Origin: a virus
Reading direction: 5' to 3' (one strand)
Virus genome (UHGV): UHGV-0134996
Length of the DNA stretch: 64,000 bases
Shown piece by piece: positions 36,848 to 37,436 of this stretch; the stretch's first letter is position 1, and each line of letters begins with the position of its first letter. The translations under genes and the position numbers were made by a program. The notes under the pieces are model-generated. The model was not told the origin of the DNA. It made no database searches and worked only from the letters and a program-made list of their open reading frames with translations.

Positions 36848-37270
36848 ATGTCATTCTTTTCTACATTAAAAACAGCTTTGTCTTTGAAGGAGAAACTTGC
36901 TGCTACTGGTGTTCTTGTTCTGATTTGCGCACTTGTTGGTGCTGGGTTTGCGTGGGAACGTCATCAGCTAAAGCAAGCCATGGAGAAAATTGGCAGTCTT
37001 GATCAGGCTGTTAAGGAACGTGATAAGTCAATAATGGATCTTAACCAGACCATTGAGACGATGAACAAAGCAGAGCAACATTTTCACAGCCAGGAAGTGA
37101 AAAATGAATCAGAACAAGCCAAGTATGCTGACAGGCAAATGGAACGAAAAGCTGAAGTTCAGAAACAACTTGTTGCGGCGGGTAATGTTCGCCAGCGTAT
37201 TCCTGCTGACACTCAGCGGTTGCTCCGGGAGTCGATCAGCGAATTTAACGCCGACGCCGACAAAGGTTAA
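36848..37270 (+). CDS. i-spanin-like protein (Rz-like)
   Basis: N-terminal TM helix then coiled-coil domain; contains embedded out-of-frame lipoprotein gene. Confidence 0.55.
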   Translation: MSFFSTLKTALSLKEKLAATGVLVLICALVGAGFAWERHQLKQAMEKIGSLDQAVKERDKSIMDLNQTIETMNKAEQHFHSQEVKNESEQAKYADRQMERKAEVQKQLVAAGNVRQRIPADTQRLLRESISEFNADADKG

Positions 37271-37436
37271 CCACCCTGCCCCAAAAAGTGCATTTATGTG
37301 CAGGATGCCAGAGTTTAGCAGTGAATATTTTGATGATCTGCCAGCGTATATCCTCGATACAGAAACGATGCTGATGGGGATTAACAGGAAGAATCGCAAC
37401 GTTAATGATTACAACCGCGCTATCAGCGGTAACTAA
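37125..37436 (+). CDS. o-spanin-like outer-membrane lipoprotein (Rz1-like), overlapped architecture
   Basis: Lipobox LTLSGC; Pro-rich mature region; alternative start at 37185. Confidence 0.5.
   Translation: MLTGKWNEKLKFRNNLLRRVMFASVFLLTLSGCSGSRSANLTPTPTKVNHPAPKSAFMCRMPEFSSEYFDDLPAYILDTETMLMGINRKNRNVNDYNRAISGN

Follow-up and report, generated by a model that had tools for sequence, protein, structure and literature searches.

ppfA and mlp of a P1-like phage-plasmid: an overlapping gene pair that most likely encodes a two-component spanin

Introduction

The closest described counterpart of the gene pair studied here is ppfA/mlp of Escherichia phage P1. The P1 record gives ppfA (P1_gp064) a 'possible periplasmic function' and calls mlp (P1_gp063) a 'membrane lipoprotein precursor', with the RefSeq product name 'Rz-like spanin'. 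SpaninDB (the supplement of Kongari et al. 2018) lists gp064/gp063 as an 'ovl' two-component spanin in a family of its own, 'P1'. Such spanins are defined by a type II protein with a coiled coil and, encoded in the +1 frame over its 3′ end, a lipoprotein of the outer membrane (PMC6139136).

PMC9025707 likewise names ppfA and mlp as the spanin genes of P1. They overlap in part, and their operon is not linked to the remaining lysis genes; lyz and lydA/B/C/D/E sit elsewhere, in other operons. In its passage on the pair, that paper has the two genes picked out from predicted features and credits this to Summer et al. (2007). It labels ppfA the o-spanin and mlp the i-spanin. The sequences point the other way, with ppfA of the i-spanin type and mlp of the o-spanin type.

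A genome-wide CRISPRi study in P1 reported efficiencies of plating of 1.3/1.2 for ppfA and 0.24/0.19 for mlp, and both genes were scored as non-essential for plaque formation, with P1 lyz and lambda Rz scored as essential in the same work. Because spanin mutants plate under standard laboratory conditions (PMC9025707), the non-essential score says little about whether the pair acts in lysis.

The relatives of P1, itself a workhorse phage, are widespread phage-plasmids that carry antibiotic resistance. Here we describe the orthologous pair in a 64,000-nt stretch of viral DNA (hereafter the window; all features below are on its plus strand) and assess it by the class criteria for two-component spanins (Summer 2007; Kongari 2018). 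An earlier note, made from the window sequence alone, had read the locus as a classic embedded or overlapped Rz/Rz1 pair.

Results

Gene neighbourhood

Judged by sequence similarity and gene order, the window is a P1-like phage-plasmid (Punavirus). Positions 36600-37700 share 99.8 per cent nucleotide identity with Salmonella phage SJ46 (KU760857.1) and 97.7 per cent with P1 (NC_005856), and a 25-kb stretch around the locus is 98-98.6 per cent identical to several P1-like phage-plasmids. The replicon is nearest to those of SJ46/JL22-type P1-like phage-plasmids, not to that of P1 itself. The window is largely colinear with SJ46 through the packaging genes, dmt, the plasmid replicon, the head and tail genes, and the tail fibres, and it shares with P1 the gene order dmt-hrdC-uhr / upfC-upfB-ppfA-mlp-upfA / oriR-repA-parAB. 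Besides the ppfA/mlp locus, no lysis-gene annotation was found in the SJ46-colinear part of the window.

Four segments (6904-7903, 9209-14111, 14793-15850, and 52741-54015) had no megablast match of at least 400 nt to SJ46 positions 1-30000 and 66000-103445; these are presumably variable or accessory regions. At the edge of the window, positions 1-862 are 73 per cent identical to a segment of the SJ46 antirepressor region but lie out of colinear order, which hints at a rearranged or divergent immunity region.

Two baseplate genes lie directly 5′ of the pair. The first, upfC (35727-36011), encodes the PAAR spike tip according to PHROG profiles (phrog_281 and phrog_1559 across upfC and upfB), a Pfam PAAR motif, and the P1 annotation; the second, upfB (36020-36808, or from 35963 in the P1 annotation), was identified by PHROG profile and P1 annotation. 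In the P1 baseplate, the PAAR spike tip is the product of upfC, and the upfB product is a 'tripod' that attaches to it (PMC9024508, PMC12810830; cryo-EM in PMC12810830). On the 3′ side are upfA (37448-37840; phrog_1453 and P1 annotation, function unassigned) and then oriR and repA of the plasmid replicon. The pair is thereby placed outside a lysis cassette, the usual though not obligatory location of spanin genes.

Several annotations in this neighbourhood deserve comment. The P1 start of upfB at 35963 gives a protein of 281 aa and a 49-nt overlap with upfC. The PHROG profile covers residues 20-281 only, the SJ46 record begins the gene at the position that matches 36020, which yields 262 aa and has GGAG before it, and the protein is 258-260 aa long in diverged relatives, so that the shorter start looks more likely from these comparisons. 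In SJ46, the CDS at KU760857.1 2420-2812 (window 37448-37840) is labelled upfB and is the orthologue of P1 upfA. Several diverged P1-like elements carry a Phage_gp49_66 gene (PF13876) just 3′ of mlp (L091, 3600-3959; L098, 2101-2463; L099, 2097-2462), which in L091 lies between mlp and a 129-aa ORF of upfA size. This gene is absent from the window. A 'Gp49 family protein' from E. albertii (P0004) also matched part of Mlp.

PpfA, the candidate i-spanin

The ppfA ORF (36848-37270, 140 aa) begins with ATG. A Shine-Dalgarno sequence, AGGAGG, can be read at 36837-36842, 5 nt before the start, and SpaninDB gives the same one for P1 gp064. The window protein is identical to P1 PpfA at 139 of 140 residues, differing by M45 where P1 has I, and it matches the 'Rz-like spanin' profile phrog_89 with E=1.2e-25.

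PpfA has one hydrophobic segment. The best 19-residue Kyte-Doolittle window covers aa 17-35 (mean 2.35), and the transmembrane segment is placed at about aa 17-36 (36896-36955). The first 17 residues hold three K/R against one D/E and form a mildly basic tail. These features support a type II topology, with a single N-terminal membrane segment and the bulk of the protein in the periplasm, an orientation that we infer. The protein's sole Cys (C27) falls within the membrane segment, leaving none in the periplasmic part. SpaninDB describes P1 gp064 in the same way: 140 aa, 104 of them periplasmic, with zero periplasmic Cys and 'one in TMD'.

An AlphaFold2 model built with twenty homologues (mean pLDDT 71) has a helix at residues 13-110, a break at 111-119, and a second helix at 120-139. 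The periplasmic part of the first helix (alpha-1, aa 37-110) is encoded by 36956-37177; the non-helical break and the C-terminal helix (alpha-2) are encoded by 37178-37264. Coiled-coil heptads run over aa 38-80, where the heptad hydrophobic moment has z=4.3 and the observed value was reached in none of 5000 shuffles. By the model and the heptad periodicity, PpfA has the two-helix, largely alpha-helical build of i-spanins. These computations bear out the earlier description of a type II membrane protein with a periplasmic coiled coil. The region of aa 111-139 is the best-conserved part of the protein alignment and coincides with the doubly coding stretch described below.

Mlp, the candidate o-spanin

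The longest mlp ORF (37104-37436, 110 aa) starts with ATG, as annotated in P1, and is read in the +1 frame relative to ppfA. The two ORFs span exactly the interval given in the earlier note, the second running past the stop of the first. Mlp differs from its P1 counterpart at one of 110 residues (L24 in place of W, in the N-terminal extension), and it matches the 'Rz-like spanin' profile phrog_30284 with E=3.1e-57 and, weakly, phrog_456. With full-length matches to PHROG 89 and PHROG 30284 and the synteny with P1, the two proteins belong to the orthologue groups of P1 PpfA and Mlp.

The end of the h-region and the lipobox (LTLSGC, with lipobox L-S-G-C) are encoded by 37206-37223, and the Cys predicted to be acylated by 37221-37223. 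A regular-expression search found that FASVFLLTLSG followed by this Cys fits the core of the PROSITE-type lipobox pattern. Residue +2 of a mature lipoprotein decides, under the Lol sorting rule, whether it goes to the outer membrane. In Mlp this residue is Ser, not Asp, both in the window and throughout the relatives (CSG or CSN), which predicts sorting to the outer membrane. The lipobox core is conserved in all lineages (see below), and processing as a lipoprotein is predicted on that basis.

Mature Mlp (37221-37433) is 71 aa long, with a short Pro/Thr-rich N-terminal tether after the +2 Ser, an invariant second Cys (C27 of the mature protein, 37299-37301), and a conserved C-terminal segment predicted to be helical. 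A low-confidence AlphaFold2 model shows coil and then a helix at 63-85. The protein had been called Pro-rich. This holds locally, since four Pro lie within TPTPTKVNHPAP; over the mature protein as a whole, with six Pro among 71 residues, it does not.

SpaninDB gives P1 gp063 as 110 aa with 71 in the mature form, LipoP cleavage at residue 39, and one periplasmic Cys, and flags it for 'Too long signal sequence' and for having no PROSITE hit. Of 528 curated spanin systems, 507 have one or more periplasmic Cys that could form an intermolecular disulfide (PMC6139136). The pair studied here has one through Mlp C27 alone, the only Cys of the mature protein besides the lipobox Cys. Since PpfA lacks a periplasmic Cys, any covalent homodimerisation could occur only through this residue.

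Automatic annotation frequently shortens or misses mlp. The 'outer membrane lipoprotein' CDS of SJ46 (KU760857.1 2277-2408, window 37305-37436) is a 43-aa fragment that starts past the lipobox. A HMMER search of 1.84 billion proteins with the Mlp alignment recovered eighteen representatives, essentially all of them P1-like fragments, an outcome that shows a narrow family together with poor gene calling and that yielded no further lead on function.

Conservation and selection on both frames

From the annotated start, the region common to both frames is 37104-37270 (167 nt), and mlp ends 166 nt past the ppfA stop. This is the architecture of the overlapped class with the second gene in the +1 frame, so of the two arrangements named in the earlier note, overlapped is right and embedded is not.

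A scan of genome contigs returned three near-identical loci and the first scan of viral contigs eighty near-identical loci; diverged loci were obtained with a diverged-homologue query and exact-protein look-ups. Those whose source is named are elements of Salmonella, Cronobacter, and Klebsiella aerogenes. In these diverged relatives PpfA is about 60 per cent identical, and in each the +1 frame stays open over 110-123 codons, spanning the ppfA stop. Every one also retains a hydrophobic stretch with a lipobox-type Cys (LSGC, LNGC, LNAC, LSAC, or LVAC, each followed by Ser), as well as the second Cys and the motif SEYFDDLPAY...INRKNRNVN.YNR.

We compared each of five diverged relatives with the window sequence by codon position. 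In 37271-37433, where mlp alone is encoded, differences fall on 19-33 of the 55 third positions of mlp codons and on 5-13 of 54 at each of the other positions (heterogeneity p=5e-8 to 1e-2 over the five relatives, values that overstate independence because the comparisons share ancestry). Within the overlap, divergence over 37173-37270 (98 nt) is 0.13-0.16 in four of the five relatives, with the three codon positions contributing evenly; sequence that encodes ppfA only diverges by 0.37-0.44. This drop is about three-fold (Fisher odds ratio 0.24-0.31, p<=4e-5 in four of five comparisons, with the same shared ancestry). In the most distant relative, L090, the divergence of 37173-37270 is 0.30 (p=0.07). 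The signature of double constraint is confined to these 98 nt, and the pattern is the one expected of two frames under purifying selection, as judged from the substitutions. The earlier note had named two findings that would count against it, a lipoprotein frame that is not conserved and the lack of a signal peptidase II site; the frame is kept under purifying selection, and a lipobox with an acylatable Cys is present and conserved in all lineages.

Among the P1-group loci (L001-L085), no frameshift was found in ppfA or mlp. Their sole indel inside the overlap is a 6-nt deletion in L005 (NZ_PTRE01000134.1), equivalent to window positions 37248-37253. It removes one unit of the tandem CGCCGA CGCCGA, so that PpfA loses 'AD', Mlp loses 'TP', and both frames stay intact.

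The protein database also contains PpfA-Mlp fusions of 193-195 aa, which arise through +1 frameshifts whose sites in the overlap (window 37104-37270) number six or more. The fusions are P0031, P0038, P0044, P0046, P0055, P0066, P0072, P0002, and P0010, the last of which is a 169-aa variant with an internal deletion. One junction corresponds to an A missing from the A5 run at 37100-37104. Most of the variants come from automatic read assemblies and small clusters, and a small number are NCBI entries. Either sequencing errors or sporadic inactivation of the spanin in plasmid prophages may account for them.

Start codon of mlp

The annotated ATG at 37104 gives a signal peptide of 39 residues. It is preceded by an SD-like AGGAAG at 37092-37097, 6 nt upstream; SpaninDB gives AGGA as the SD of P1 gp063. 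Codon conservation points to an alternative start, the TTG at 37173-37175, which would give a canonical lipoprotein signal peptide of 16 residues, MRRVMFASVFLLTLSG, ahead of the lipobox Cys.

Positions 37104-37172 evolve as though they encoded ppfA only, and here the relatives differ at 14-19 of the 23 third positions of ppfA codons, each of which is a second position in mlp; therefore the 23-codon N-terminal extension of Mlp is without amino-acid constraint. At 37173 the codon is TTG in every P1-group haplotype, ATG in nine of ten diverged sequences, and AGG in L097, while the ppfA codon at this site varies among CAT, GAT, and TAT. No Shine-Dalgarno sequence was found before 37173. Under the PROSITE rule for lipoproteins, the Cys lies at positions 15-35 and there is a K or R within the first seven residues. 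Going by these sequence features, a protein begun at 37173 would pass this rule where the 110-aa form fails.

The upstream ATG (at 37104, or 37107 in the diverged group) is present in all thirteen sequences compared. It is preceded by AGGAAG at a spacing of 6 nt in the P1 group and by AGGAGGT at 8-9 nt in diverged relatives (AAGAGGT in L090). The conservation of this SD-like sequence is ambiguous, because the same bases encode the invariant PpfA residues Q82-E83.

The codon-position pattern and the ATG/TTG conservation led us at first to favour 37173 as the true start. The AGG in L097, and the upstream ATG and SD-like sequence kept in thirteen of thirteen sequences, weakened that view. It is conceivable, though we think it unlikely, that P1-type o-spanins are translated from both ATG 37104 and 37173. 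If so, spanin dosage could be adjusted through the ratio or timing of the two Mlp forms, on the model of dual-start holins. Otherwise a single start is used, and either the public annotation or the proposal of 37173 may be wrong. The comparative data in any case lead to a concrete question that can be tested, namely which mlp start codon is used.

Expression

A gap of 39 nt separates the stop of upfB from the start of ppfA, which makes late co-transcription with upfC and upfB plausible. From this gene layout, ppfA and mlp are probably expressed late, in common with the two upstream genes.

We took the motif of the P1 late (Lpa-dependent) promoter from the annotated LP23, as AAGTNACTT-N3-6-TANNNT. 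Exact matches in the window are at 32977-32994, 42699-42717, and 62283-62301 on the plus strand; the match at 42699 corresponds to LP23, in front of the major capsid gene. By the exact-motif scan of the window, upfC and ppfA have no canonical Lpa late promoter ahead of them. Candidates with two mismatches occur at 35676 and 36810, and by our estimate their count does not exceed chance. A generic sigma-70 scan returned nothing above the expectation from shuffled sequence. The P1 record places two predicted sigma-70 promoters, P1ppfA and P2ppfA, inside upfB and no late promoter there, and the main text of the P1 transcriptome papers does not mention ppfA or mlp.

Discussion

The ppfA/mlp genes of the window are orthologues of the P1 pair. 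Their products most likely form a two-component spanin, one of the overlapped class, a reading to which we give a probability of roughly 85 per cent. It is carried by the i-spanin build of PpfA, the conserved lipoprotein signal of Mlp, and the placement of mlp in the +1 frame, sharing 37104-37270 with ppfA.

That the +1-frame ORF might be a chance open frame and no gene at all could be argued from the gene callers, which often miss or shorten mlp (many metagenome calls begin downstream), and from the first 23 mlp codons, which show no constraint in the mlp frame. The conservation analysis refutes this: the third-position bias in 37271-37433 has p down to 5e-8, divergence falls three-fold in the overlap, and the lipobox Cys, the second Cys, and the conserved C-terminal motif persist across lineages. 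What remains of the idea is a negligible chance. A decaying remnant is another matter, in that the pair would once have been a spanin, and P1 would now finish lysis with its SAR endolysin and several holins instead. The non-essential CRISPRi scores would suit such decay, as would the 195-aa PpfA-Mlp frameshift fusions with their six or more junctions. The fusions come mainly from automatic read assemblies and small clusters, however, and neither frame is broken in any of the P1-group loci fetched or in any diverged lineage at about 60 per cent identity, with substitutions that indicate ongoing purifying selection on each frame. Decay is accordingly very improbable.

The remaining alternative accepts both genes as functional and gives PpfA and Mlp an envelope role apart from lysis, such as an envelope or exclusion function expressed by the prophage from sigma-70 promoters in the lysogen, or help with envelope penetration tied to the spike-tip genes. 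Its appeal lies in the location, unlinked to any lysis gene, behind upfC/upfB and before the plasmid replicon, and in the promoters, with P1ppfA and P2ppfA predicted in the P1 record, no late promoter there, and none found by our motif scan. The CRISPRi scores were again non-essential, but this is weak evidence given that spanin mutants plate in standard conditions (PMC9025707). Both proteins match spanin profile families, and a type II coiled coil with an overlapping +1-frame lipoprotein is what defines spanins (PMC6139136); the virion-proteomics paper of Gonzales et al., moreover, makes no mention of ppfA or mlp. We consider a non-lysis role quite unlikely.

If the pair is a spanin, its action can be sketched by analogy with lambda Rz/Rz1 (Berry 2008, 2012; Rajaure 2015, as outlined in the summaries given by PMC6139136 and PMC9025707). 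Mlp would be acylated, cut by signal peptidase II, and sorted by the Lol system to the inner leaflet of the outer membrane. The anchor of PpfA would lie in the inner membrane, with the C-terminus facing outwards. In the periplasm, the C-terminal parts of the two proteins would bind each other through the peptidoglycan mesh. Once the murein had been removed by the P1 SAR endolysin Lyz, the PpfA-Mlp complexes would be free to move and change shape, and would then fuse the inner and outer membranes and so complete lysis.

The pair is already catalogued and is an ordinary candidate spanin; its unlinked site, behind baseplate genes and beside oriR, is an oddity that the literature has already noted. 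The finding matters little beyond annotation.

Among known systems, P1 PpfA/Mlp is nearest, with the same overlap, the same neighbours (upfC, upfB, upfA, and oriR/repA), the same SD sequences, and one substitution per protein. The textbook overlapped pair, LysB/LysC of P2, has the same layout, with the o-spanin gene beginning within the 3′ end of the i-spanin gene, in the +1 frame, and running on past it (PMC6139136). When we compared PpfA with the NCBIfam model of P2 LysB (TIGR03495), it scored 19 bits (E=1.3e-3), far below the curated cut-off of 92.75, and we rejected membership in the LysB family; an NCBIfam scan of Mlp gave no match. The P2 genes sit in a lysis cassette beside the holin and endolysin, whereas ppfA/mlp of the window lies outside one.

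With lambda Rz/Rz1 the pair shares its protein types and presumed mechanism, that is, a type II inner-membrane protein with two helical periplasmic segments and a small +1-frame outer-membrane lipoprotein. Rz1 is wholly embedded in Rz (PMC6139136), whereas mlp only overlaps ppfA. Rz has two periplasmic Cys and Rz1 one, and lambda needs an intermolecular disulfide in at least one subunit (PMC6139136); in the window, PpfA has none and Mlp one. Mature Mlp, 71 aa long, differs from Rz1 in being Pro-rich only locally and in its conserved C-terminal segment, which is predicted to be helical. A Pfam scan of both proteins (E<=0.1) found no Rz/Rz1 family, with sub-threshold coiled-coil noise for PpfA and nothing for Mlp, and a PDB sequence search with both found no meaningful relatives. 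The earlier description as classic Rz/Rz1 thus fits in architecture and presumed mechanism, but not in family. Set against these systems, the pair combines a presumed Rz/Rz1-like mechanism with a P2-type overlapped layout and, by sequence, belongs to the narrow P1 family of its own.
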